Translations under genes and position numbers: made by a program
DNA from: Saprospiraceae bacterium
GTDB lineage: Bacteria > Bacteroidota > Bacteroidia > Chitinophagales > Saprospiraceae
Direction of reading: 5' to 3'
NCBI GenBank assembly: GCA_022841505.1
Contig: JALHRK010000001.1
Location: 357 to 64,356, forward strand
Length of the DNA: 64,000 bases
In this document: in pieces, positions 5,456-32,100 of the stretch
How positions within the stretch are numbered: position 1 is the first letter of the stretch
Layout: each line of letters opens with the position of its first letter
The notes under the pieces: model-generated
The model's input: the letters and a program-made list of their open reading frames with translations, nothing else
Database searches by the model: none
What the model was told of the DNA's origin: nothing

Positions 5456-6493
5456 CTACCACACCACCTTCTTCCCATTTTCATACAACACAAACCGGTC
5501 TTTGGGTTCTTTGAAAGCCAGTGCTTGATTCATGCCAAACTTGCACGCACTTCGGATATTCAGGCCACGAGCAATGCGACTGTAAAAGCCGGTAGCAAAT
5601 GCAATGGCGGCATCGTCACGCACAGCCCAACTGGTGCCGATGACGTAGGGAACTACCTGTGCTAATGCCTGAGCCTGGGCTTCTGAATAGCAAGAGTTGA
5701 AGAGGACTACATTGATTGGGACATTTTCGTCATTAACTATCGTTTCAAAAATACTCTTTACAACATCGGTACCCACAAAAAAAGGATTGCGTTTTGACTC
5801 ATCGTACAAAATGATTCCAGTGTCGTCCTGTGGCACTTGCTGTCCATTGTCTCCACCTAGATTGAGGCCACGATGGATCACGTCTTGTAATTCCGGGTTG
5901 CTTTTTTCTCCATGGCCCGAAAAGTGAACGATGGTTGGTCTTTCGTCGTACAGGTATTCCTGAAACTCTGACAAAGTCACGGCTTTCTTAGAACGGATGC
6001 GGAAAGAGGCAGCGTTGTCGCTTTCCTGAATCTTGGTAGAAATGCGGCTATGTTCCAGATCAACCTGAAGAATGCCGGTGCCGGAAGGATTCGAAGCCAA
6101 AATGAGGATCGTTGTGGGTTCTTTGGGTGGAGTTGGTGAAATTGGTTCTGGAACAGGCTCCGGTTTTGGCACAATAACAACAGGCTCCGGTTTTGGCACA
6201 ACAACAGGCTCCGGGATGTCCATTTCAACACTAATTTCCGGGTCCGTAATGTCGCCAAGATAGCTTTGCAGGGCAGAGGTCACCTGAGCACGGGTACGAG
6301 CATAAAACTCAGACCCTACCACGCCGTTGGAATTGTCTTTTTCATTTTTGTGGTAGCGGCTGGATTGCAGGGTTACGTTGTCGGATAGGTCGTTGTCCCT
6401 AAGCTTATCGGCCACTAAAAACAGGGCATCAATGGCTTTTTCCAGATCGCCTTTCGCAATCATGCTGCGAATGTCTTTGATTTTGATGGTCAT
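5456..6493 (-). CDS. CHAT/caspase-like cysteine protease with an N-terminal EAD-like helical adaptor and a Pro-rich linker
   Basis: The C-terminal half has a His/Cys dyad context (IVHFSGHG ... VVLFNSCYS) typical of CHAT/caspase-fold proteases. The N-terminal ~85 aa helical module matches the C-terminus of the PNP protein at 23561-25096. Start set at the ATG at 6493. Confidence 0.75.
   Translation of the reverse strand: MTIKIKDIRSMIAKGDLEKAIDALFLVADKLRDNDLSDNVTLQSSRYHKNEKDNSNGVVGSEFYARTRAQVTSALQSYLGDITDPEISVEMDIPEPVVVPKPEPVVIVPKPEPVPEPISPTPPKEPTTILILASNPSGTGILQVDLEHSRISTKIQESDNAASFRIRSKKAVTLSEFQEYLYDERPTIVHFSGHGEKSNPELQDVIHRGLNLGGDNGQQVPQDDTGIILYDESKRNPFFVGTDVVKSIFETIVNDENVPINVVLFNSCYSEAQAQALAQVVPYVIGTSWAVRDDAAIAFATGFYSRIARGLNIRSACKFGMNQALAFKEPKDRFVLYENGKKVVW
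6154..6215. repeat. tandem 27/24-nt repeat encoding the PEPVV(V/I)VPK linker of the CHAT protein
   Basis: CAGGCTCCGGTTTTGGCACAA(TAA)CAA occurs 2.4 times. Confidence 0.8.
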
Positions 6494-19042: not shown

Positions 19043-19585
19043 TTATCTCAACAACTCCTTCATCTTCTGAAGGCAATCAAACTTGCGCTTCCGCGCGGCG
19101 CCTTCGCTGGGCAATCCGAGGTTTTCGGCGACGGCTTCCATCACAAACTCTTTGATGTACACCATTTCCAGTAGCGAACGGCAGGGTTCTCCAATCCGGT
19201 CGAGCAGGGCGCGGGCCATTTTTGCTGCGGCTTCCTGGTCGGCAATCCGGTCTGCAATGGGCGCCACAGGTTCGTCCGGAATCTGATCGTCCCAGCCCGT
19301 TGTACTGCCGCCTTTCCTCCGAAGCAACACCTTGCCAATTCCGATCAGATAAGTTTTCAAATTGCTCTGAAGCGGTGCTGACAATTTACCGGTGGTTGCG
19401 TTGTAGTGAAAAACAACCATGGCATCCTGGAGCAATCCGCTGGCCTCTTCCGGCGACATACGTCCGTATTGCATAAAAAATGCCCGAAATGAACCTCGGT
19501 GTTGGTCATAAAACTGCTGCCAGACTGCTTCTCCGCCGTTGCGCAGCAAATTCAGCTGGCTTTCATCTTCCTTGTAGTTGCTCAT
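19043..19585 (-). CDS. RNA polymerase sigma-70 family (ECF-like) sigma factor
   Basis: 180 aa with a region 2-like segment (FRAFFMQYGRMSPEEASGLLQDAMVVF) and a region 4 HTH (MEAVAENLGLPSEGAARKRKFDCLQKM). Confidence 0.8.
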   Translation of the reverse strand: MSNYKEDESQLNLLRNGGEAVWQQFYDQHRGSFRAFFMQYGRMSPEEASGLLQDAMVVFHYNATTGKLSAPLQSNLKTYLIGIGKVLLRRKGGSTTGWDDQIPDEPVAPIADRIADQEAAAKMARALLDRIGEPCRSLLEMVYIKEFVMEAVAENLGLPSEGAARKRKFDCLQKMKELLR

Positions 19586-19625
19586 TGATCGTTGCTTTGT
19601 TCGATGCGTTACAAATTTCCATTTA

Positions 19626-20540
19626 TTATACCAGGTTCAACGCTCTTTTTTCCAGAACCGACGCTGGCAGGCAGGCCAATATCTCGTCTTTCAGGGCTTG
19701 AATGAGGCGTCGTTTCACATAATCCTGCTGCGTGACCAGCAAAATTTCACGAGCTGGCGCCGGAGAAGCAAAACTTCGCAGCATGTAACGGTGGTCTTCG
19801 GGGAGGGTCATGGCGGCAAGTTCGGGCAGAATGGTATAGCCCATTTTCATCTCCACCAGGCGTTTGAGGGTTTCTAAGCTGCCCGCTTCATACCGGAATT
19901 GCTTGCCGCAATCGCGTTCCAGGTCGCACAACTTGCGGATGCTGGTGCGCAGGCAATGCCCTTCCTGCAACAACCAGAGGTCTTCTGCATTCAGATCCTC
20001 TGCTTTTAGGCCTTCTTTTTGGGTAGGGTCCGAGGTGTAAAGGAAAAAAGCTTCATAAAAAAGCGGTTGCCCTTCTAAGGATTTATCCGGCAACGGCCCG
20101 GCCATGATGGCGGCGTCAACGGCGCCGGTTTTGAGTTTTTCTAATAAAGTTTGCGTCAGGTGCTCCGTCACGATAAACTCCATGGCGGGGTACTTGTTGA
20201 CAAAAGCTTCCAGGAAATAAGGCACTAAATAGGGCGCCAGGGTAGGGATGATTCCGACGCAAAGCCTGCCATTCAGGGCCGCATGCCGTTCTTTGACCAA
20301 CTCTTGCAACCGGCCAACTTCATTCAGGATTTTACGCGCCTGCCGAATAACAGTTTCTCCGATTTCCGTTGGCACAACGGGTTGGCGGCTGCGGTCAAAA
20401 ATTTTACAGTCCAGCTCTTCTTCCAATTTCTGAATCATCATGCTGAGGGTTGGCTGCGTGACGTGGCACCCTTCCGCAGCTTTCGCAAAATGCCTTAGAT
20501 TATCAACTGCCGCGATGTACTCTAATTGCTGAATGTTCAT
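19626..20540 (-). CDS. oxyR: LysR-family peroxide-sensing regulator OxyR
   Basis: N-terminal LysR HTH (LEYIAAVDNLRHFAKAAEGCHVTQPTLSMMIQKLE). The redox Cys pair sits in the canonical context LLQEGHCLRTSIRKLC, with C-x8-C spacing as in E. coli C199/C208. Confidence 0.85.
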   Translation of the reverse strand: MNIQQLEYIAAVDNLRHFAKAAEGCHVTQPTLSMMIQKLEEELDCKIFDRSRQPVVPTEIGETVIRQARKILNEVGRLQELVKERHAALNGRLCVGIIPTLAPYLVPYFLEAFVNKYPAMEFIVTEHLTQTLLEKLKTGAVDAAIMAGPLPDKSLEGQPLFYEAFFLYTSDPTQKEGLKAEDLNAEDLWLLQEGHCLRTSIRKLCDLERDCGKQFRYEAGSLETLKRLVEMKMGYTILPELAAMTLPEDHRYMLRSFASPAPAREILLVTQQDYVKRRLIQALKDEILACLPASVLEKRALNLV

Positions 20541-20580
20541 GCTTCATAGATTTTTTCAATTCCTACATCAAAAATATCAG

Positions 20581-20612
20581 TTTGATTGATTAATTCATAA
20601 AAATTACCTTTG
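20581..20612 (+). promoter_or_regulatory. candidate promoter divergent from oxyR (-33 TTTG, -7 TACCTTTG)
   Basis: TTTG at 20581-20584 and TAnnTTTG at 20605-20612 are separated by 20 nt. Confidence 0.35.
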
Positions 20613-20808
20613 CTTATCTCAAAAATACGCGAACGCGTAGTACACGTAAAAAGGGTCGGGAACTTTCGGCATGTTTACGTCAACCACTGACCTCAGCAAA
20701 TATACGAAAGCTGAAGCCTCTAACCAGATTAGCAACCAAACGAATCAGATGGCAGGTGGTGAATTTTAGGATCAAGTTATTATAAATGTCGTGAAATAAT
20801 TTTTTTAG

Positions 20809-20848
20809 AGGCTGCCCAATGTTTACAACGGGGCAGCCTTCTTTATCT
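20809..20848 (+). terminator. hairpin terminator-like element closing the oxyR-divergent small unit
   Basis: A perfect 9-bp stem AGGCTGCCC / GGGCAGCCT with a 13-nt loop, followed by TCTTTATCT. Confidence 0.45.
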
Positions 20849-20861
20849 CACCAACTTCGGG

Positions 20862-20903
20862 CAAAAAAACAGGAGCCACCCCGGAAAACCGGAGTGACTC
20901 CTG
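20862..20903 (-). terminator. hairpin with a T-run on the minus strand
   Basis: An imperfect 13-bp stem CAGGAGCCACCCCGG-AAAA-CCGGAGTGACTCCTG is preceded on the plus strand by AAAAAAA, which is a U-tract for a minus-strand transcript. Confidence 0.35.
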
Positions 20904-21276
20904 TCGTTAATGCACGTTAGTTTTTCTACTACTAAAAAACTGTTCTATAGTAAATTTTCTACAATTTGGACTTCAATTCTTATCTTTATGGACTAAACGC
21001 GCCCATAAAATATGACTGCAAGTTCGCGATAGAAAGCCAATTTAACTTCGACGATTACCGCCCTTTTCACCACTACTTCTTTTTTACATATATTTCGCAT
21101 CCACTTACCTGTGCCAGGCAAAAAAGCATATCTCTCGCCCCTAATATGCTATTTTTAAGTCTTTTATTTATAACAAGCTTCTCTAAAAACTTTCTAACCT
21201 GTAAAGAAATTGCATTTTTTTTGTAATTTTCCAGTGGTATTTCACCAAATATTACAGATTTAACAAAAGTGTTAAA

Positions 21277-22716
21277 ATGGAAAAGAGCAAATTCATTGCG
21301 TACCTGCGAAACTTGAGCCCCAAAGAGCTGACCGGATTTGGAAAGTACTTGTCCCGGAATTGTGAAAATCAGGAAGCAACGCTTGCCGTGTTCAACTACA
21401 TCAAAAACTTCCGCCCGGATTATTCTGACGAAGAAAACCTAAACATTGACTTCGCTTCGGCTAAGATCTTTGAGAAGCCCTGGGCGCAAAACAGCGCAGA
21501 CAACAGAATCAAGCTGCTGAATACCCTGTCAGATCTGTTTCTCCGGTTGAAGGAATTCCTTATTCATCAAAAAGTAAGGGCAGGTTCCCTTGAAGCGCAG
21601 TTATTGTGGCTGGAAATTTTGTTGGCCCGTGAACAATACGCTGATGCAACCAAACATTTGGAGCAGATACAATCCACCATCATGGATCGCATGCCAACAG
21701 GGGATCAATATTATTTTCTGAAACTTGCCCTGCCTTACCTTGATTGTTATAAGATTCCAGGTAAGGGACGATTCGAGGGGTATAAAGCATTAATTGACTG
21801 CGCTTCCAGCCTGGAAGCTTTTTATGCCTTTACCCAACTCAAACTTGCCTGCGAAATAGCAAGCCGCCGAAAATTTTTGGCTCCCGAAGAGTTAACAGCC
21901 CAAGATGGGTTAGGCGCGGCTCTGCCAGGCTTCAACTATGCGCCTGCCTTTTTGGCAGCCAATCCAATCATAAACATCTATTACGAGATTTATCAGCTCC
22001 TGCGAAGTGAAGATGGCGCACATTTCGATGAAGCCTTTGACCTGCTGCATCAAAATGCGGGAAAAATTGATCTGGAGGAGCAACTCATTTTGCTGACTTA
22101 TTTGCAAAATTATGCAGCTAACCAATTGATTAAAGGAGCAAATTGGGTTTCTAAAAAATTACATAAATTGAACCTGTTAGGGCTTCGTCACGGGGCATTC
22201 ACCTTAAAAGGGCTGCTACCTGTTTCCCAATATTATAACATCATTGCAGTGGCCTGCCAGGCTGGGGAATTTGAATGGGCGGAAACATTTATCGAAGGGT
22301 ACACACTTGAAATGAAAACGCCTGACAGGACGGATAAAAAATTCCTTGGCCTGGGGATCGTAGCGTTCAGGCAAAAAGCATTTCAAAAAGCGTTGGATCA
22401 ATTTAAACAGGTTCAATCTGTGGATATTGATGACACCATTCGCTTAAAACCATTATTGCTGGCATGTTGCTATGAAATGGGGCAAGTAGATACGTGGATC
22501 ATTTACATGAGTAAGGCCTTCTCAAAACAGTTGTCCAGAGAGAAGTATATGAGAAAAGATACCATCATAGCTATGAAAAACTTTGTCAGGTTTTTTAATA
22601 CGCTGCACCGTGGGAAATTCAATAAAGAGCTGTTAATTAATAAAATACAGACCAATCATGCTTTTTTAAAAGAATGGTTACTTGAAAAAGCAAACGATCA
22701 TCCTGATGCCCGGTAA
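21277..22716 (+). CDS. hypothetical all-alpha (TPR-like) protein, paralog 1 of an island-bracketing pair
   Basis: 479 aa that aligns end to end by eye with 25437-26933. Shared blocks are SKF..(Y/F)L..LS.KEL..F, KLLN(T/A)LSDLFL.LKEFLI.QKV, LK(L/M)ACEIA, LLNYAA.Q and F.WA..F. I recognise no family. Confidence 0.7.
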   Translation: MEKSKFIAYLRNLSPKELTGFGKYLSRNCENQEATLAVFNYIKNFRPDYSDEENLNIDFASAKIFEKPWAQNSADNRIKLLNTLSDLFLRLKEFLIHQKVRAGSLEAQLLWLEILLAREQYADATKHLEQIQSTIMDRMPTGDQYYFLKLALPYLDCYKIPGKGRFEGYKALIDCASSLEAFYAFTQLKLACEIASRRKFLAPEELTAQDGLGAALPGFNYAPAFLAANPIINIYYEIYQLLRSEDGAHFDEAFDLLHQNAGKIDLEEQLILLTYLQNYAANQLIKGANWVSKKLHKLNLLGLRHGAFTLKGLLPVSQYYNIIAVACQAGEFEWAETFIEGYTLEMKTPDRTDKKFLGLGIVAFRQKAFQKALDQFKQVQSVDIDDTIRLKPLLLACCYEMGQVDTWIIYMSKAFSKQLSREKYMRKDTIIAMKNFVRFFNTLHRGKFNKELLINKIQTNHAFLKEWLLEKANDHPDAR

Positions 22717-22722
22717 CAAAAT

Positions 22723-22755
22723 CCGCCGCCCATAAGCCCGGCTCATGAGCGGCGG
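22723..22755. terminator. hairpin between the convergent genes paralog 1 and the FN3 gene
   Basis: Stem CCGCCGC / GCGGCGG with a 19-nt loop. Confidence 0.35.
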
Positions 22756-22780
22756 TTGCCGTGTTATTCAGCGTAATGCA

Positions 22781-23161
22781 TTAGAGGATAATATCCACCC
22801 AGATGATTTCTCCGGAATACTGCGCTTCGCAAACCGCTTTGACATGGACGGTATAAGTACCGGCAGGCAGTCCCGTGAAGGTGTGATACAGGTTCGTAGT
22901 TGGCACCGGCTGGCTTGTATAATGGTCTTCTCTCCGGTAATACCATACTTCGAAACCGTCCGGGCTGCCCGCTGCATTCCAGGAGAAAGAGATGGCGCCT
23001 GAACCCTGATTCGTAATGTCGAGGTTGTAAGGATCCATGCATAGGCATTCCGTTTCCGGTTGAACCGGCGAGGAATAGCTCTGGAAAACCTGGGCCAAAA
23101 GCGCCAGCAAAAGAACGGTCATGAAGGCGCCCCATCGTCCTCTTTTTTGTGCATTTTTCAT
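22781..23161 (-). CDS. small secreted fibronectin type III-like protein
   Basis: Signal peptide (GAFMTVLLLALLAQVF), then one FN3-like module (ISFSWNAAGSPDGFEVWYY...YHTFTGLPAGTYTVHVKAVC). Confidence 0.6.
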   Translation of the reverse strand: MKNAQKRGRWGAFMTVLLLALLAQVFQSYSSPVQPETECLCMDPYNLDITNQGSGAISFSWNAAGSPDGFEVWYYRREDHYTSQPVPTTNLYHTFTGLPAGTYTVHVKAVCEAQYSGEIIWVDIIL

Positions 23162-23560
23162 AGTAAGATAAGAATTGAAATGGAGGAAATGCGATGGCAG
23201 GAAACGGTAAGTAACAGGCAGAAAAAGGGCATCTTGCCTGCAGGGTGCAATACTGCAGGCAATTCAAAAATTGAACTTCTCCTTGCGGGCACTAGTAAAC
23301 CGAAAGAAGAAGCATACCGCCTTGTCTTGTGAAACTACTCTTGTCAGGGAAGTCGGAAGGATACGATCGCAGCATTCGTTGCCGGAGGTATTTCCTCGCC
23401 GTGCCGTGCCTGTCATCATGTTCGACGAAGGCAAAGGTATGGGCGAAGTGAAGAAAAATCAATTTAATTGACTGATTTACAAATATTTATAAAAATTTCT
23501 GTGGATTTCCGTGAATTTCTATAGATCCATCCTGACAGCTCGGACGCTAAAGAACAGCCC

Positions 23561-25096
23561 CTACAATCGCCCAACCAACTCCAAAAGTCCCGCCACAATC
23601 TGGCTCCGCTCCACCGTGGCCTCATCATTCCGGATGGTTCCGATGCGTAGTTTACGGGTCATGGCTTCCCAGCGGGAGGAAATTTGCAACGCTTCCAGAT
23701 GGGATTCTTCATCCCGGGATGCGGTGAAGTCAATTACGGCCTGAATTGCAGCTTCCGGCCTCCCGGAGGCAATCATCCGCTGCAATTTTTGGATGTATTC
23801 TGTTGTGACGGGGCTCCGATCCGGTTTTTTGCCTGTTGATCCCGGAGTTGCCGCTTCTTTAGTGCCGTAATAATGGTGGCTTATTTCAATGCGTTCCGCC
23901 GATTGTACATATTTATCTCCTCCGACAGCGTCCGTACTCTTATGCTCCTGATGATGGGTAACGCTGTTGTTGTCTCCGAGCCGGAAGTCGCCCCCCACCG
24001 TGATATTGCTGCCCTGAATGACGTTTTTGCTGTCGAAAATCGTCACACCGGCGTTCCCCGATTTTTTGGCTTCCACCAGTAAACGCTCCAATTCTGCCTG
24101 GAGCGCCGTTTTTCCTTCAAGCGCGTGTCTCAGGGCAATGCGCGCCTCGGCTTTCACATCGGCATCATCCGGCGCATTTTTTAAAGCATTGTATTCCTCT
24201 GCCAGCAGAGATTTTACTTTTTGCCACAAAGCCACGGCAGATTCGCTCGTTGTGCGGCTAAAATCCTGTCCGCCAGCTTCCATTTTGGTGATTGGCAATG
24301 TCATTTCGAGCATTTGTTTTGCCAATTCCTTCACATCCATACCTACGAATTTAAACTGAGATATATCTAACTGGTCAAGCATTTCAAAAATAAAAGCCGC
24401 CATATTGGCTGCTGCCCGTTCCTGCGAACCACCGGCATCTGCATGCGATTTACCTTCCAAAAGGTCAGAAATGCCCCGGATGTTGCCAAACCGGATGCCG
24501 GTATGAAACTGCATGGCCTGGCCGAAACCAATGGATTCCATTTCTAAAGCCGTCGTATCGTTGAACGATTGCTTCAGGAGGCGGTAAACGGCTCCGTCGG
24601 TGGCTGCAATCACTTTATCCCCGGAAGCGATGGGTCCAAAAACCACTTTTGCTCCAGGGGGGCCGCCCACGACCCTTTTTTGCCACCGATCATTTCCCGC
24701 AACAGATTGGGCAGTTGCCAGTAAGTCCTTGCTGTAATATCCGGCTTCCGGTCGAACAACGAAGCCAGTCTCCGTTTCTTTTCCAGATTCATAGCCATAA
24801 AACTTCGTCCCAACGACCACATCCCCCAATACTACATCTTTAACCCCTCCGGCGATACCTGCCAGGATAACTACAACCGGCTCAAAAAGACGAATTGTTT
24901 TTTCTGTTGCCAGTGCAACAGTGCTGTTCCCTGACCCCGTCTGATGAGTGACAATATTGAAGACGCCATTTTTGCCTTCAAACTGCCCGGATACATAGCG
25001 ACTTCCTTCAACCGCCCTTTCTGTTTGCGAAATCAAATGCGCCAGAATCGCTTTATGCTCCAGCGGAATTGGCGTGAGTATGGCAATATGATTCAT
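23561..25096 (-). CDS. PNP/MTA-nucleosidase-superfamily effector, with a coiled-coil and a Gly-rich segment, ending in a C-terminal EAD-like adaptor
   Basis: The N-terminal ~250 aa carry PNP_UDP_1 hallmarks (HIAILTPIPLEH, ILAGIAGG, GDVVVG, TALEMESIGF, IRGISDL). The C-terminal ~80 aa match the N-terminus of the CHAT protein. Start set at the ATG at 25096. Confidence 0.75.
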   Translation of the reverse strand: MNHIAILTPIPLEHKAILAHLISQTERAVEGSRYVSGQFEGKNGVFNIVTHQTGSGNSTVALATEKTIRLFEPVVVILAGIAGGVKDVVLGDVVVGTKFYGYESGKETETGFVVRPEAGYYSKDLLATAQSVAGNDRWQKRVVGGPPGAKVVFGPIASGDKVIAATDGAVYRLLKQSFNDTTALEMESIGFGQAMQFHTGIRFGNIRGISDLLEGKSHADAGGSQERAAANMAAFIFEMLDQLDISQFKFVGMDVKELAKQMLEMTLPITKMEAGGQDFSRTTSESAVALWQKVKSLLAEEYNALKNAPDDADVKAEARIALRHALEGKTALQAELERLLVEAKKSGNAGVTIFDSKNVIQGSNITVGGDFRLGDNNSVTHHQEHKSTDAVGGDKYVQSAERIEISHHYYGTKEAATPGSTGKKPDRSPVTTEYIQKLQRMIASGRPEAAIQAVIDFTASRDEESHLEALQISSRWEAMTRKLRIGTIRNDEATVERSQIVAGLLELVGRL

Positions 25097-25436
25097 CGGA
25101 AAAAAAATAATTGACCATGAAAAAAAACACCTGCTCACTCCTCCCCGAAACATAAACCTCCGGCTTCTATATATAGAGGGGTTCTATCAAAAACAAATTT
25201 GGCACAGTTTATTCTTTAAAGCAAATACGGGTTTTGCCCAAATCACCGAACTTTTCGTACCTTTGTTTTTACCCCAATCGTTTCAATTACTTCGATTAGT
25301 TGTTAATTTTAGCCGCTGGATTCTAATTTAAATCATTAATAATCAAAATTTTAAAAACAAAACTACTCCCACTTAAACCTTTCGCTTGATTTTATGGCCG
25401 CATTGCAATTTTCACCGTAAAAAAAAACGGAATTTT

Positions 25437-26933
25437 ATGAAAAATAGTAAATTTTTGTCCTTTTTGGGTACGCTGAGCAAAAAAGAGCTGGTCGCATTTG
25501 AACAATACCTGCTGTTTTTCCACCGAAAAGAAAAAATTGCACTCCTCGTGTTCTCCTACCTCAAACCTTTTTATCCAAAGTTCAATACCCCGGCAATTGC
25601 ATTTGAATTTGCCTATCAGGAAATATTTGGGTCTCCGCTGCCCGTAGAGCCCAAGGGCGGAAAGAATAAAGCAAAAAAACTGCTGAATGCACTTTCAGAC
25701 TTGTTCCTGTTTCTAAAGGAATTCCTCATCATCCAAAAAGTAAAGAAATATCCTTTAGAAAAAGAGCTGCTATGGTCGGGTGTTTTACTGGACAGAAGAA
25801 AGGTCCGGGCGTTTGAAACACATTATCCCAAACTGAAAAAAAAGGTCAACTCGTCCCCGGTAGATGTTCCCGGTTATCTGGACAAACTTGCAGCAAGCTA
25901 CATTCCAAACTACCTGTTACTTGAGGATAATTCAGCCAGGAGCATTGCCTCTTTGTTAACCTTCATTGATGATTTGGATTGTTTTTATACAAGTACCCGT
26001 TTAAAAATGGCCTGCGAAATCGCAACGCAAAAGAATGTACTGGCGCTAAATCTGCCAATGGACTCTGCGTTTCAGGCCGTAAGTTTAGTAGGGGTTCTTT
26101 CTCCAAATTTAAAAAAAAGCAACCCCCTCATCGCCATCTACATGGAGTTGTTCCTGCTCATTGTGAATAAACAGCACGAAAGCTTCAAAAAAGTGGAGTC
26201 ACTATTGCGGGCAAATACGGACAGGATCGAAAACCGGGAACAGCACATAATCGTTATTCACCTCTTAAATTATGCTGCTGCCCAAATCCGACTGGGCCAT
26301 CCGGAGGGTTGGAGCATGGTTCATCGCTTGAATGAATATGGCATCAAAAGGAAGCTTTTCATTGAAGGGGGGAGTATGTCGCCGGTTCAATTTACCAACA
26401 TCATCAATGCTGCCTGTAAAACCAGATCCTTTAGATGGGCTCAAAACTTCGTCAAAACGTATGCCCCATATCTCGGGGAGGACATCCGCGAAAACAACAT
26501 AGCATTGGGACAAGCCCAAATTGCTTTTGAACAGGGTTTTTATAAAAAGACGATGAGTGTCCTGAAGAAAAACCCCGGCGGCGACCTGTTTTATGAGCTT
26601 CGTGCCAGGTCCCTGACGTTGAGGAGCATCTGTGAACTCCGCCAGGAAGTGGTTGAAATCCAGAAATACTGTTTTGCTTTTGAACAATATATCTTCCGAA
26701 ACAAGAAAAGGAATACCGAAGCGATTGCGTCAGTCCTCAATTTTATTAAAATGCTCAAAATCGTGATTTTCAGAAAAAAAGACAAAGAACGCATCATCAA
26801 TGAGATAAAAACTCTGAAGCCGATTCAATTTGAAGACTGGCTGCTCCGGCAAGTGGAGGTATACTATGCAGCTGCCCCCAGCCGCATGAAGGGCAAGTTG
26901 CGTGGCAAGTCCGGAAATCAACTCAAAACTTAA
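25437..26933 (+). CDS. hypothetical all-alpha (TPR-like) protein, paralog 2
   Basis: 498 aa from the ATG at 25437, which aligns with the start of paralog 1. See 21277-22716 for the shared blocks. Confidence 0.7.
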   Translation: MKNSKFLSFLGTLSKKELVAFEQYLLFFHRKEKIALLVFSYLKPFYPKFNTPAIAFEFAYQEIFGSPLPVEPKGGKNKAKKLLNALSDLFLFLKEFLIIQKVKKYPLEKELLWSGVLLDRRKVRAFETHYPKLKKKVNSSPVDVPGYLDKLAASYIPNYLLLEDNSARSIASLLTFIDDLDCFYTSTRLKMACEIATQKNVLALNLPMDSAFQAVSLVGVLSPNLKKSNPLIAIYMELFLLIVNKQHESFKKVESLLRANTDRIENREQHIIVIHLLNYAAAQIRLGHPEGWSMVHRLNEYGIKRKLFIEGGSMSPVQFTNIINAACKTRSFRWAQNFVKTYAPYLGEDIRENNIALGQAQIAFEQGFYKKTMSVLKKNPGGDLFYELRARSLTLRSICELRQEVVEIQKYCFAFEQYIFRNKKRNTEAIASVLNFIKMLKIVIFRKKDKERIINEIKTLKPIQFEDWLLRQVEVYYAAAPSRMKGKLRGKSGNQLKT

Positions 26934-27837
26934 GCTGCCTTGCATTTTGCGCCAGCATTTGCAGGGAATTCCAATATCGGTCGTAAAGTGCAGGATTGCT
27001 TTTTTTAGAAAATTCAAGAACGGGACAATTGGCACGCGAAACCCCATAGACATAATGCGAAACCATAATTTTCCCGTCGGGACTATCCCCATCAACGGTC
27101 ATGAAATAATTGGCAGGGATATGTTGGTAGGCGAATATTTCAAAAGTGCCGCGGTACCCGGCGTTGATGAATTGCTGTTGCACCTTACCGAGCTTTTCAA
27201 TGGCTTCTCTGATTTTGCCAATGCTTTTCAACTCATCGGGTAAGTGTTTGGCCCGGTCGCTGAAATACAGCTGGGTTTCTTCGCAGTCGGGATCCAGCAG
27301 GTAGCATTTAAAATTGACGCCCTTAGCCAAAAGCTCCTGCACATGGTGCTTGAACTCTTTTTCATTCCGGGAGAAAAAATAGCCTGCAAAGGTATTCAGC
27401 ACCACCCCAAACTCGATGACTTCCTGTTTTGCATCAGAAATGAAATCCACTTTTTGAGCGATGGTCAGGCGGCCGTCTTCGTAAAATGTGAATCCAGGAT
27501 GAGCCGAAGGGTGCACTGTTGTTTCGATTTTTATAGGGATTGGGGCCCAATTGGATGGTACAGCTTCACCATATTGAGTCTCTTCCCATTCCACACCGAT
27601 TTCCCTGCGGATAAGTTCCTGAATGCCTTCAGCCGCTATTTTCAGTATTTTGTTGCCCCCTTCCTTCTTTCGGACAATTTTGCTAAACGCTGATTCAGAT
27701 ACAATGAACCCAAGTACTTCCATTTTTTCAACGATCTGTAGTTGGGAATACCCTTGTTTCTCCTTGAGCAATACCACCCCAGCCTGGATGATGTCTATGC
27801 TGCGTTGTCTGATCGGGCCTCCTGGTTTATCCGCCAT
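26923..27837 (-). CDS. HTH regulator with a C-terminal DUF5919-like domain; the alternative start is 27861
   Basis: The N-terminal HTH-like segment is YSQLQIVEKMEVLGFIVSESAFSKIV. The C-terminal part (KCYLLDPDCEE...GTFEIFAYQHIPANYFMTVDG...VSHYVYG...CPVLEF...LYDRYWNSLQ) resembles the domain fused to XRE HTHs in actinobacterial DUF5919 proteins. This is from memory only. Confidence 0.5.
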   Translation of the reverse strand: MADKPGGPIRQRSIDIIQAGVVLLKEKQGYSQLQIVEKMEVLGFIVSESAFSKIVRKKEGGNKILKIAAEGIQELIRREIGVEWEETQYGEAVPSNWAPIPIKIETTVHPSAHPGFTFYEDGRLTIAQKVDFISDAKQEVIEFGVVLNTFAGYFFSRNEKEFKHHVQELLAKGVNFKCYLLDPDCEETQLYFSDRAKHLPDELKSIGKIREAIEKLGKVQQQFINAGYRGTFEIFAYQHIPANYFMTVDGDSPDGKIMVSHYVYGVSRANCPVLEFSKKSNPALYDRYWNSLQMLAQNARQLKF

Positions 27838-27901
27838 AAGTATTTGATTTTTTGAATGCATTGCTGCGTTAAGATACAAAAATTCCCTTCCCTGCTCCGG
27901 A

Positions 27902-28516
27902 TCAGACCGTTTTGGCAGCATCCAGCACCATCAGGATACCTGCATTGCCGCATTGCGGGTCGTTCAGGTAGTTTTTTACGATGCGAACCAAAACAAACCC
28001 CACCTTTTGTTGCGGGGTAATGGTGGGGTCTGTTAATTCACCATTCAACACCCGGGCGCCGTATGCATCAATGGTCAAATGGTCTTTATAGGGCAAATAC
28101 CCGTTCAGCATACCCACAGTTACCTGCCCTTTCAACCCCAGTTTACGGCATAATTCCTGCCGGGTTCGGTACAAAGCACGCGCCACGCCTTGTCCGCGAT
28201 AAGCAGGATCAACGCCCATATCCATGCCGTACAACCATACGCCCTGCGGGTCGTGGGTATTCAACCATAAGTTATCCGAAATTTCCAGGAAGGTATGGTC
28301 TGCTTCGAGTGGGTGGTTGGTGCGCATGGTGCTGCTCATCGCAATCAGACGCTCTCCGTCCGTCACCACAAATTGCCCTTCCGGAAACAGCTCGATGTGT
28401 CGCAAATAGTGTGGTGCGGCGAGCCTTTCTTCTTCAGCGAGCGTAGGGAATACCGTTCGTTGGAGCGCTTCCAATTTTATTACATCCGCCGGGATGGTGT
28501 TACGGATCAAATACAT
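27902..28516 (-). CDS. GNAT family N-acetyltransferase
   Basis: Acetyl-CoA binding motif A is present (VDPAYRGQGVARALYRTRQELCRKLG). 204 aa with a C-terminal extension. Confidence 0.8.
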   Translation of the reverse strand: MYLIRNTIPADVIKLEALQRTVFPTLAEEERLAAPHYLRHIELFPEGQFVVTDGERLIAMSSTMRTNHPLEADHTFLEISDNLWLNTHDPQGVWLYGMDMGVDPAYRGQGVARALYRTRQELCRKLGLKGQVTVGMLNGYLPYKDHLTIDAYGARVLNGELTDPTITPQQKVGFVLVRIVKNYLNDPQCGNAGILMVLDAAKTV

Positions 28517-29157
28517 TAGTTTTTATTTTTATAATAACCAACTGATAATTAAATGTTTAAAAAAAAATCAGGTGGTTAATTTCCAAATCACACCGGATTC
28601 CTGCTTTAAAATTCAAAGAGCAGGAATAATTTTTTCACCTCAAATTTATGTGTTGTTGGGATGATGTTGTTAAATTTGGGCAACGGTTGAGGTCTGTTTT
28701 GTAAATTGTTACCAAACTTTATACGGAACGGCCTGCACCAACCGTTAAGTAACGGAACCTTATACTTACTTCCCCTTTTGTAACGACGCTTTCTTCCCCC
28801 GGATATTGGGTGTCAAACTATTCCCTGTTGAGAAACTTAATATGCTTCAAAGTTACCTTTGAAAACTGTATGCCATTCAGGCATGTTAATCCTGTATGAG
28901 TTAGTGCCCAAAAACGGTTAAACCATAATCCTATGAACTTTGGTGCTCCCAAAAATGTCGTAACAATCGACGTAGTCATCGCTTTGATTGTATTTCTGGT
29001 CTGCGTTTTTCTGTCCTGCGCCATGCATTCGGACACTATCGCCGGATTCGCTACCGGTTGAGCGCTTTTCAGAGAAACAATTAAGTATACTAAAACCGAT
29101 TAGCGTTACCTGTTTTGTAATTATCGCTGTACCTTTCCTCTTTCGCTTTACCCGCGT

Positions 29158-32100
29158 ATGGAGCAAAACAGCAATCAGCAAAGACAGCAGTACAACGCAG
29201 CGTTCAAACATGCCTTAGATGCATTGAACGCTTCGCAACGCGAGGCGGTTGATCATATCGAAGGCCCGATGCTGGTCATTGCCGGCCCCGGCACTGGCAA
29301 AACGCATATCCTGGCCGCCCGCATTGGCCGTATTTTGTCGGAAACCGACGCCCAGGCCAACAATATCCTCTGCCTTACTTTCACCGACGCGGGCGTCCAT
29401 GCCATGCGCGAACGCCTGCTCCAATGGATCGGCCCGGAAGGACACCGTGTACACATCCACACCTTCCACGCCTTTTGCAACAGCATCATCCAGGATAACC
29501 TTGAGTATTTTGGCCGAAGCGACATTGAGCCACTCAGCGAACTCGAACGGGTGGAAATTATCCGCCGCATGCTTGACACGCTCGACCCCGCGCACCCGCT
29601 CTACCGCAGCGCAGACGCTTACTTTTATGAATCCCACCTCCGGGATCTTTTTCAGCGCATGAAATCGGAAAACTGGACGCCCGCGCTCCTCCACGAAAAA
29701 ATTGACACATACCTCGAAGCATTGCCACAACGCCCGGAGTTCAGGTACCAGGTCAACCGAGGGCACCTGCGCAAAGGGGATCCCAAAACGGCGCAAATAG
29801 AAGAGGCCCGCCAAAAAATGGAACGGCTCCGCGCAGCCGCAGCGCTTTACCCCCAATATGAATTGGCCTTGCGGCAAATGCGGCGCTACGATTACGACGA
29901 CATGATCCTGTGGGTTTTGCGCGCATTTGCTGAAAACGAAGCCCTCCTGCGCAGTTATCAGGAGCGCTATCTCTACCTGCTGGTGGATGAATACCAGGAT
30001 ACCAATGGCGCCCAAAATGAGGTCATCCGCCGGTTGATCGCCTACTGGGAGTCGCCCAATGTATTCATTGTTGGCGACGACGACCAGTCCATTTTTGAAT
30101 TCCAGGGAGCGCGCCTGAAAAACCTGCTGGACTTTTACGCCCAATACCGCGAACAACTGAAGGTAGTGGTGCTCCGCGACAATTATCGCTCTTCCCAACA
30201 TATTTTAGATGCTTCGCACGGTTTGATCGGCGTCAACGAACGGCGCATTGTAAATAGTTTAGACAACGTGGGTATTCAAAAGATCCTAACTGCCCGCAAC
30301 GACAACTTCTCCCGCTCGGCTTTTCTGCCGGAGGTGCTGTCTTATGCCAACCTGGCCCAGGAGGAAACCGGCGTAGTCGCCCAGATAGAAGCGCTCTGGC
30401 AGAGTGGTTTCCCCTTGCAGGAAGTGGCAGTGATTTACGCCCGGCACAAACAGGTGCGCACGATCGCTTCCCTGCTTGAAAAAAAAGGCATCCCTTACGC
30501 AACGCGACGCCGCGTGAACATTCTCGATTTGCCGCTCATCCGCAACATGAGAACCCTGCTGGAATATTGTTATCTCGAATATACCCGGCCTTATAGTGGC
30601 GAACACCTGCTTTTTCAAATCCTGCATTTCGATTTTTCGGGCATTCCTCCCAACGCACTGTCGCGGCTGAGCTGGGCCATCGCCGGGACGGGTACCGCTG
30701 AAAGGCCCTTCTGGCGCGATGCTTTGCAAACCAAAGGCCCGGAAGCGGATTGGCGCGAAGCCACTACCCGATTTTCCGCTGTTCTGGAAGACCTGATTGC
30801 ACAGGTGGCCAACCTCGGTTTGCCGGCTTTTCTGGAACGGCTGCTCAACCGCAGCGGCATACTGGGCTTAGTGATTCAGCACCCTGAAAAAGTATGGCTG
30901 ACCCAGGTGGTGAAAACATTTTTCGATTTCGTTCTCGAAGAGAGCGACCGCAATCCCCGACTCACCCTGCGCCGCCTGCTCGACATCCTGCGCAATATGG
31001 ACGACAACCGGTTAGCCATCGAAATCAACAAATCAGTCGTCGCCAAAAACGGCGTCAACCTGCTGACGGCTCACAGCGCCAAAGGGCTGGAATTTCAGAT
31101 CGTTTTTATGATTGATTGTGTCAAAGACGGTTGGGAACCCCAGAGTCGTGGCGGCAACGGCCGTTTTGCACTCCCGGATACGCTTACCTTTTCGGGCGAA
31201 GAAGACGCGCTGGAAGCCCGCCGCCGGCTGTTTTATGTAGCCATGACGCGGGCCAAAGAGCGCCTGTACCTCTCCTACAGTCGCCAGGACGCGAAAGGGA
31301 AGGATACCCGGCCCGCAGTTTTTATAGATGAGTTGGGCCTTGTCGCTTCAGAACGTACCTTGCCACCCGCCGTGCTGGCGGAAGCTGAATTGCTGCAAAT
31401 GACCGAAGTGGGGCGCCCCCAAATTCCCGCCGAAGCCGAAGCCGCCATCCATACCCTACTGGAAGGCTTTGTAGTCAGTATTTCCGCGCTGAACCGCTAC
31501 CTGCGCTGCCCGTTGAGTTTTTATTATGAAAACGTGTTACGGGCGCCCGCCCTGCAAAGCGAAGCGGCCAGCTACGGGTTGGCAGCGCACAACGCCCTGC
31601 AACGCCTGTTTGAGCGCATGTTGTCGGCAAAGGGGCAGCGGTTTCCCGGCTTGCGCGAATTCCTGCACCTTTTCGAGCGGGAAATGGAAAGAATGCGGGG
31701 CTATTTTCCACCGAAAGCATTCGATCGCCGCGTAGAAACCGGTCGCGCCTACCTGAGTGCCTACTACCATCAGCACATCGAACACTGGCACAAAAAAGTG
31801 CGCCTCGAACTTCAGGTTCGCAATGCGGTTGTGGACGGGGTACCGATCACCGGGATCATTGACAAGGTGGAAATCCACGAACACCAAAGCGTGGTGCTGG
31901 TAGACTACAAAACGGGCAGTCACCGCGACGCCAAACTGCGTCCACCCGGCGGCGCCCAGCCCTACGGCGGCAGCTACTGGCGGCAATTGGTATTTTACAA
32001 ACTACTCTACGAAAACTACGACAACAGCGGAAAACGGGCGGATACCGGTGTAATTTCTTATTTGGATCCCGACCCGACTGGCGTGTTTCCCCAGGTCTCC

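Follow-up and report, generated by a model that had tools for sequence, protein, structure and literature searches.

The 64,000-nt window analyzed here, from a Saprospiraceae bacterium (contig JALHRK010000001.1), contains an island of six genes between oxyR and a helicase gene: two paralogous tetratricopeptide repeat (TPR) proteins (A and D), an FN3 protein (B), a PNP-fold nucleosidase carrying a C-terminal EAD11 domain (C), a helix-turn-helix (HTH) regulator (E) and a GNAT acetyltransferase (F). An earlier note on this DNA had proposed that the six genes form an undescribed conflict or defence module. Comparison with homologous loci shows that a five-gene linked cassette is real, and it is apparently undescribed. 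As judged from its sequences, the cassette would comprise the PNP nucleosidase, a single TPR protein, an FN3 protein with features of export, and E and a small protein designated S107, both predicted to regulate through DNA binding, and it appears to be specific to the Saprospiraceae lineage. The copy in the window, as read from alignments with its relatives, is a derived one, in which the TPR-FN3 pair has been duplicated, the FN3 partner of D and the S107 gene have been lost, and the GNAT neighbor has been gained.

For the comparison, all open reading frames (ORFs) of approximately 60 non-redundant loci bearing homologs, each identified below by an L number, were clustered into families. The recurring families were E (60 loci), TPR (53), PNP (37), FN3 (31) and S107 (30), and the next commonest family occurred in 6. 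An unbiased set consisted of the 34 E-anchored loci that extend at least 6 kb beyond E; next to E, a TPR gene was observed in 29 of them, PNP in 24, S107 in 23, FN3 in 20 and EAD11 in 15, and GNAT and the helicase were observed in one each. On a rough estimate that assumes one or two TPR genes per ~5-Mb genome, a TPR gene would lie within 7 kb of E by chance in ~0.5% of cases per locus, corresponding to ~0.2 loci expected against the 29 of 34 observed. The order and orientation of the genes are fixed, E(+) FN3(+) TPR(−) S107(+) PNP(+), and a metagenome scan with S107 as an independent anchor yielded 26 loci with the identical arrangement. Because the same genes recur in ~60 loci whose flanks are unrelated to one another, these results indicate that the five genes are linked. 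Relatives of the window keep the gene set even where A is only 35–39% identical and the upstream flank is different, and some genomes contain two cassettes. On one short contig (L071, 2,046 nt), E, FN3 and S107 are consecutive, and FN3 and S107 are not separated by a TPR gene.

The co-occurrence that the earlier note had proposed to look for was therefore observed, in fixed orientation across ~60 loci, for the TPR paralogs, the PNP/EAD protein and regulator E, and was not observed for GNAT. Conversely, the situation that it had named as refuting the idea, unlinked genes in housekeeping contexts, was found for GNAT and not for A/D, C or E. A scan for the E family in one genome per GTDB species gave 58 loci, all of them in Saprospiraceae, Lewinellaceae or Phaeodactylibacter metagenome-assembled genomes. 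No description of the cassette was found in the literature searches, and no catalogued system matches it.

In the 530-aa ORF of the nucleosidase C, Pfam identified PNP_UDP_1 (1.9e-24; ~nt 24377–25087) and a C-terminal EAD11 (1.2e-14; ~nt 23564–23794), together with a conserved middle region that has no family match. Alignment with orthologs moves the likely start to M20 (nt 25096), giving a protein of 511 aa. Among solved relatives, the profile of C is closest to methylthioadenosine/S-adenosylhomocysteine (MTA/SAH) nucleosidases (6e-23). Residues E13, M186-E187 and S210-D211 do not vary among the 26 cassette PNP domains compared, and they correspond in the alignment to the EME and SD motifs of MTA/SAH nucleosidase (MTAN), suggesting that the catalytic site is intact and of the MTAN type. 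In PADLOC, C matched PDC-M60C (1e-14) and the PN-superfamily effector (4e-9); in NCBIfam it matched MtnN at 5.8e-21, which is below the model cutoff and is a score not comparable with the PADLOC scores. The earlier statement that no component besides the PNP domain has an assigned role in known defence systems agrees with the profile search: the PNP domain of C is the sole match in PADLOC-DB 2.0, and A, B, D, E and F gave none at an E-value ≤0.1.

The PNP-EAD11 fusion is also seen in orthologs of C. A search of A, B, D, E and F with our own EAD11 hidden Markov model (HMM) found no EAD11, and a word-indexed search with the EAD11 segment alone returned no match. The window encodes a second EAD11 protein outside the island, in which an N-terminal EAD11 (own HMM, 2e-4; Pfam, 1.4e-16) is joined through a linker rich in Pro to a caspase-like peptidase domain, CHAT (1.6e-9). 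The gene for this EAD11-CHAT protein is a solitary one, flanked by a trpF-like gene and a Tsp protease gene, ~17 kb from that for PNP-EAD11. Among the E-anchored loci, 21 of 55 contain an EAD11, which is fused to PNP, carried by a ~130-aa protein just 5' of the regulator, or carried by a 200–236-aa protein after PNP; the small stand-alone EAD11 ORFs match Pfam at 1e-11 to 1e-19. In L090, PNP-EAD11 is followed by two further EAD11 ORFs, making three EAD11 genes in a row, and an EAD11-PDZ protein and a TRADD-like_N-EAD11 protein also adjoin cassettes.

The position after S107 is usually occupied by PNP, and in some loci it holds other content. In L031 (9570–16107), GASH, DO-GTPase2, DO-GTPase1 and GAP1-N1+EAD1 genes, and then PNP, directly follow S107, adjoining the TPR and regulator genes; this insert is a complete version of the GTPase-centric conflict system that Kaur et al. 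(2020) described, and L031 is the sole locus with a GTPase core. L028 (13851–20599) and L048 (13773–20811) share post-S107 proteins of 466, 1108 and 667–769 aa, for which no Pfam family was found above threshold and one weak sub-threshold match to DUF6249 was seen. A different post-S107 set, also unannotated, is present in L093 (10831–18602). In L016 (14968–20152), PNP is followed by a set consisting of GrpE, an atypical Hsp70 with the nucleotide-binding domain only, a ~875-aa HEAT-repeat protein and a second Hsp70-like protein, and in L025 (13591–20774) a GrpE/Hsp70-like/HEAT set directly follows S107 and replaces PNP.

A and D share 31% identity over their full length (BLASTP, E-value 9e-65) and are thus true paralogs, in agreement with the earlier note. 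The AlphaFold2 (AF2) model of A (pLDDT 84) contains 24 helices and is all-alpha, as had been predicted. The A-family profile matched consensus TPR proteins over residues 337–414 (2.8e-8), and Foldseek searches with A against PDB and BFVD returned only generic TPR, Sel1 and PPR solenoids, none of them significant and the best at an E-value of ~0.01. Kinship of A with IFIT or APC was considered and set aside, since these Foldseek matches were not significant, and no specific relationship is claimed. Weak TPR matches aside, searches of Pfam, NCBIfam, PADLOC and PHROGs placed neither A nor D in a family, and no HTH was found in either by Pfam or NCBIfam. Orthologs of D are present in L001–L006 and L011–L068.

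The TPR family extends far beyond the cassette. An exhaustive profile search gave 11,764 representative clusters (formed at 50% identity) at an E-value ≤1e-3 and 6,721 at ≤1e-30, and the best 150 matches were all essentially full-length (~470 aa). A word-indexed search with A had yielded 17 matches and the appearance of a tiny family; this was a sensitivity artefact, overturned by the exhaustive search. The ten family members that were looked up are all unnamed or annotated as "hypothetical", and the databases and literature searched gave no function for the ~475-aa TPR family or for DUF5919-like regulators. The most distant TPR homologs are those of Aureispira (L009 and L010, 9296–15018), which are preceded by a 116-aa divergent, beta-rich protein with a signal peptide; the genes after them encode GNAT, APH-kinase, AAA_5 and TM2/SHOCT proteins, and upstream there are small genes of phage-like character with a PAPS_reduct domain.

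The FN3 protein B (Pfam fn3, 3.4e-7) has a basic N-terminus followed by a hydrophobic stretch, which fits an exported or signal-anchored FN3 domain. Its family (35 homologs) is characterized by two conserved Cys residues and a conserved DDLIM-like C-terminal end. In L004 and L005, every TPR gene is trailed by its own B gene. Among 12 canonical loci, the median pairwise identities were 35% for TPR, 39% for FN3 and 43–50% for the others, and the pairwise identities of TPR and FN3 correlated best of all gene pairs (rho 0.65). These values provide modest evidence that TPR and FN3 co-evolve or travel together. The pairing of a TPR protein with an exported partner may be older than the cassette.

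For regulator E, the likely start is at nt 27834, since its orthologs are ~303 aa long. The AF2 model of E (pLDDT 90.6) consists of an N-terminal helical HTH and an alpha/beta PLD-like domain, and Foldseek matched it to TrmBL2 (1.2e-5) and to members of the PLD family (1e-4 to 1e-3). The C-terminal domain superposes best on the sugar-binding domain of TrmB (TMt 0.47, rmsd 3.5, 191 columns). Window E itself has no Pfam match at an E-value ≤0.1, and two of its homologs, P0043 and P0051, carry a precomputed PF19319 (DUF5919) assignment; the "HTH/DUF5919-like" label given previously is thus a reasonable one. At the position where a PLD-type catalytic His would be expected, the search pattern derived from alignment of the E family allows His or Pro, and the conserved columns of the family do not include His. 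Since this position is variable, the PLD-fold domain of E is presumably ligand-binding rather than catalytic.

S107 is a protein of ~107 aa with a C-terminal HTH, and its gene lies between PNP and TPR in L001. It matched phrog_836, "late transcriptional activator" (3e-5), and, weakly and at an equivalent position, Pfam Mor (0.065), all below curated thresholds; its profile gave no match in PDB. In the window, S107 was removed by a clean ~390-nt deletion, the counterpart of which is 14150–14540 of L001, and no S107 match is present anywhere in the 64 kb. The deletion is common to the window and its closest relative, L011, and is not found in L001 or L012; the flanking intergenic DNA is otherwise conserved. 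A role for S107 as the essential antitoxin of a type II toxin-antitoxin pair was rejected, as the gene is deleted in the window and L011 and PNP is intact. Of 60 TPR genes, 23 have the motif TTTC[AC]CCG close to their called start, mostly 24–29 nt 5' of the ATG; it is seen in L001, L011, L015, L016, L023, L031, L050 and others. D carries it (Table 1), and A carries the variant TTTCACCA, located further upstream. The motif may serve as an operator or as some other 5' element.

These comparisons also account for the arrangement in the window. In L004, L005 and L013, each of the two TPR paralogs is trailed by its own FN3 paralog, which indicates that the TPR-FN3 pair was duplicated as a unit. D is now without an FN3 partner and overlaps E by 11 nt. 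Each TPR paralog is convergent with a minus-strand block, as described earlier; as for the "duplicated sensor plus payload" layout proposed on that basis, the duplication is present, whereas the canonical unit has one TPR gene and S107, and the layout is a lineage-specific rearrangement. GNAT F is retained in the close clade of the window and in L006. Because this linkage is restricted to one clade (1 of the 34 unbiased loci), GNAT is a clade-specific passenger and not a member of the cassette, contrary to the earlier assignment.

The locus remains beside the UvrD/PDDEXK helicase gene as the identity of the helicase drops from 97% to 82%, which argues that it is not a recent insertion. The upstream flank is oxyR in the window and L001, and gltX plus a deacetylase gene in L004 and L005. 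The identities to L004/L005 are 88%/82% for the helicase, 81%/66% for C, 63%/66% for E and 69%/56% for B; A and D are only 37–40% identical to their L004/L005 orthologs (39% for A and L004), and A evolves faster than any other gene of the locus. Among close relatives, the ratio of nonsynonymous to synonymous substitution rates (dN/dS) was 0.21 for A, 0.13–0.19 for D, 0.16–0.20 for B, 0.10–0.15 for E, 0.09–0.11 for C and 0.04–0.06 for the flanks, and dN is higher in the TPR genes than in the flanking helicase gene by a factor of ~8. By these estimates, all genes of the locus evolve faster and are still under purifying selection; positive selection is not claimed, as the whole-gene dN/dS is <0.25 in all genes. 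When the window is compared with L011, D has a dS of 0.12 and the other genes of the locus have values of 0.28–0.44; this unevenness suggests recent recombination or gene conversion across D.

The features of the window are listed in Table 1. The earlier description of the island itself was accurate: all six ORFs are present at the coordinates and on the strands listed, no mobility gene is found among them, and the island is bordered by AT-rich non-coding spacers of 736 nt (20541–21276) and 641 nt (28517–29157), reported as about 740 and 640 nt, with a GC content of 0.36–0.39 versus 0.45–0.57 in the neighboring DNA. An Rfam scan of 19500–30000, which includes both spacers, gave no match. On the minus strand of the 736-nt spacer, a strong 17-bp hairpin that includes a T-run resembles a terminator (20868–20905). 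A 95-aa ORF between oxyR and A in L001 was considered and judged spurious, as its remnant in the window (20775–21055) is broken by stop codons and the ORF exists only in L001-type genomes. A repeat search of 20400–29300 found the A/D paralog similarity only, and no long terminal direct or inverted repeats. The hairpin between the convergent genes A and B is likely to be a bidirectional terminator.

Table 1. Positions of the island genes and associated features in the 64-kb window
Feature	Position (nt)	Strand	Description
A	21277–22716	+	479 aa; TPR-family paralog; member of the extra duplicated TPR-FN3 pair
Hairpin	22723–22755		15 bp, GC-rich, between convergent A and B; from a consensus scan, pattern match only
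B	22781–23161	−	126 aa; FN3 protein, partner of paralog A
C	ORF 23561–25153; revised (likely) 23561–25096	−	Nucleosidase with C-terminal EAD11
S107 deletion scar	25188–25195		From alignment of the DNA with L001 and L011
Motif TTTCACCG	25410–25417	+	27 nt 5' of the D start codon
D	25437–26933	+	498 aa; TPR paralog at the canonical cassette position
E	ORF 26923–27921; revised (likely) 26923–27834	−	HTH/PLD-fold regulator, ~303 aa
F	27902–28516	−	204 aa; GNAT acetyltransferase (Pfam Acetyltransf_1, 3.1e-7)
EAD11-CHAT	5456–6493	−	Second EAD11 protein in the window, outside the island

What the cassette does is less firmly indicated than its existence. The reading that we prefer, and to which we give about an even chance, is that it is a gated conflict or programmed-death module; this is suggested by the company of EAD11, the payload swaps, the resemblance of S107 to phage activators and the Cap17-clade precedent for PNP, taken together. 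In the Cap17 clade, PNP domains act as immune effectors with ATP nucleosidase activity (bioRxiv 10.1101/2023.01.24.525353), and EADs couple effectors to the cores of conflict systems through homotypic interaction (PMC7159879 and PMC8195603). The proposed module would contain three transcription units: S107 with the payload, the divergent ~475-aa TPR gene, and E with FN3, convergent with TPR. The usual payload is an MTAN-type nucleosidase with the conserved middle region and often a C-terminal EAD11. The fast-evolving TPR-FN3 pair would provide specificity or sensing, and the two HTH proteins, S107 and E, would gate transcription of the payload. By analogy with Cap17 and DtcC, the nucleosidase would act as the executioner by depleting an adenine nucleotide, and EAD11 would wire it into a homotypic adaptor network that includes the EAD11-CHAT protein of the window. 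This would make it a tightly gated system of abortive infection or programmed death. That the TPR proteins control the nucleosidase, the central supposition of the earlier note, would be part of this scheme, and a new system type is possible.

Carried further, the same scheme would define a new NTPase-free conflict class in filamentous Saprospiraceae, with a constant FN3-TPR-E-S107 sensing and gating module, a swappable payload and an EAD11 hub that recruits executioners such as EAD11-CHAT; in this class, E would be a TrmB-like ligand-sensing repressor and S107 a Mor-like activator. We offer this version tentatively and consider it somewhat unlikely.

Several observations weigh against a conflict module. 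The window lacks S107, yet its PNP is intact and under purifying selection (dN/dS 0.09–0.11); therefore, the proposed gating by S107 is not indispensable. The TPR proteins do not carry EAD11, and a physical link between them and the nucleosidase is therefore not indicated; their dN/dS of 0.13–0.21 represents relaxed purifying selection, not demonstrated positive selection. By sequence, the nearest solved relatives of the PNP domain of C are housekeeping MTA/SAH nucleosidases. The set of components matches no catalogued PADLOC system, no P-loop or other NTPase domain was found by Pfam or NCBIfam in the six genes or in S107, no sensor-switch of another recognized kind is present in the cassette, and no relatives of E were found in IMG/VR. 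The 127 flanking genes are mostly housekeeping genes (Hsp70, porin, tRNA synthetase and FabI-like), no integrase or transposase is present among the 25 commonest flank families, and the PADLOC matches there are generic helicases. The accessory or defence island of the earlier note was accordingly abandoned, together with a mobile one, on the grounds of the housekeeping flanks, in which neither integrases nor known defence genes are enriched, and of the synteny with the helicase in relatives. The exception, and the one clearly mobile context seen, is L008 (7781–15377), where a trio of distant TPR (26%), E-like (32%) and PNP (37%, without EAD11) genes has as its neighbors a resolvase and an rve/Mu-transpos_C transposase as well as an AAA_22 protein, with HSDR_N and GIY-YIG genes upstream.

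The nucleosidase might alternatively be a satellite effector of an unlinked sensor, which we regard as unlikely. PNP-EAD11, like EAD11-CHAT, would then be recruited and activated by a ROCO-like LRR-AP-GTPase-COR-EAD11 protein, and the TPR, FN3 and HTH proteins would only set expression or serve otherwise. An EAD11-bearing protein of this kind does exist in the family, as Haliscomenobacter hydrossis, a Saprospiraceae, is credited with LRR-AP-GTPase-COR-EAD11 proteins in the supplement of Kaur et al. (2021); this also counts against the conflict module as we have drawn it. EAD11 is moreover absent from A, B, D, E and F, and the two EAD11 effectors of the window are 17 kb apart with no core protein between them. 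However, approximately half of the cassettes have no EAD11 and keep PNP with TPR, S107 and E, and PNP is therefore tied more tightly to the cassette than to EAD11. In several genomes, EAD11 is found on the separate ~130-aa protein in the regulator operon and PNP is without it, which fits the cassette itself as the EAD11 "core", and no AP-GTPase was seen in the 64-kb window or in any locus.

A little less probable again is a lineage-specific sensory and regulatory module of filamentous Saprospiraceae outside conflict, in which exported FN3 and cytoplasmic TPR would relay an envelope or cell-contact cue and E would read the nucleosidase product (a base or ribose derivative), with a transcriptional output in, for example, development, gliding or the nutrient response. 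The housekeeping flanks without mobility genes, the wide occurrence in one family with synteny among close relatives, and the purifying selection on every gene would all be expected of such a module. Of the five proteins, three have the appearance of regulators, E fits the TrmB sugar-binding domain best with its C-terminal domain, and Kaur et al. suggest PNPase domains as possible signal generators. Nevertheless, EAD11, CHAT, TRADD-like_N and GAP1/EAD1 have so far come only from predicted conflict or apoptosis-like systems, and payload swaps, gain and loss of components, two copies per genome and fast TPR/FN3 divergence are atypical of a core sensory pathway. A chance assemblage, in which genes with no relation to one another were recently acquired as an island between oxyR and the helicase gene, is very improbable: the AT-rich spacers on both sides and the upstream flank that varies between relatives would be in keeping with it, whereas the linkage of the genes in ~60 loci with unrelated flanks, the excess of TPR genes near E over chance and the retention of the helicase neighbor across 97%–82% helicase identity speak against it.

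If the conflict-module reading is correct, the cassette would be an immune or death module that operates without the NTPase switch of the EAD systems described in the two papers of Kaur et al.; transcription factors and a TPR-FN3 pair would do the gating in its place. The cassette would provide a genomic home for the orphan adaptor EAD11 and a bacterial case of the PNP-plus-TPR logic that is fused in fungal NLR proteins. With its constant module and variable payload, it would also offer a source of new effectors from an ecologically important group, the filamentous and predatory Saprospiraceae that live in wastewater and marine systems. If the NTPase-free class is also correct, the TPR family would be among the larger unrecognized sensor families in Bacteroidota. 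Even if the cassette is regulatory, it gives a context to the ~475-aa TPR family, with its 11,764 clusters, and to DUF5919-like regulators.

Individual components resemble parts of known systems. C shares with Cap17 of CBASS and DtcC of Detocs (Rousset et al., 2023) the PNP_UDP fold, the conserved catalytic acids, a fused signaling or adaptor domain and the PADLOC PNP match, but the cassette has no CD-NTase/SAVED, histidine kinase/receiver, NLR or pAgo partner. E, like TrmB/TrmBL2 and DUF5919 proteins, combines an N-terminal HTH with a PLD-fold domain that resembles the effector-binding domain of TrmB, whereas its sequence identity to TrmB is ~10%, the whole-chain TM-score is 0.32–0.37, and no HKD-type site is evident in it. 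S107 has the C-terminal HTH of the Mor/C late activators of Mu-like phages and matches phrog_836, but it is chromosomal and not within a prophage. With the RRNPP systems (Rap/NprR/PlcR/AimR), the cassette has in common a cytoplasmic TPR protein paired and co-evolving with a small adjacent gene for an exported product; unlike in those systems, the partner B is a folded ~105-aa FN3 domain with a Cys pair rather than a short pro-peptide, and the host belongs to Bacteroidota rather than Firmicutes. An RRNPP-like peptide pair was rejected on the folded domain of B, on the lack of an HTH in the TPR proteins and on the absence of RRNPP proteins from the top 50 Foldseek matches.

The comparison as a whole extends to the EAD-coupled conflict systems (Kaur, Burroughs, Iyer and Aravind; eLife 2020, 2021). 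The cassette differs from these in that it has no NTPase core (MoxR-vWA, STAND or GTPase), in that approximately half of its copies have no EAD of any kind, and in that the available portions of those papers name none of its constant partners, E, S107, the ~475-aa TPR protein and FN3, as components. It resembles them in the effector enzyme, a PNPase with a terminal EAD11, in the further EAD11 copies that a genome or locus carries on other proteins resembling effectors (CHAT, TRADD-like_N), and in the combination of a constant module with a variable payload in a filamentous host lineage, and at L031 the cassette holds the published system itself.

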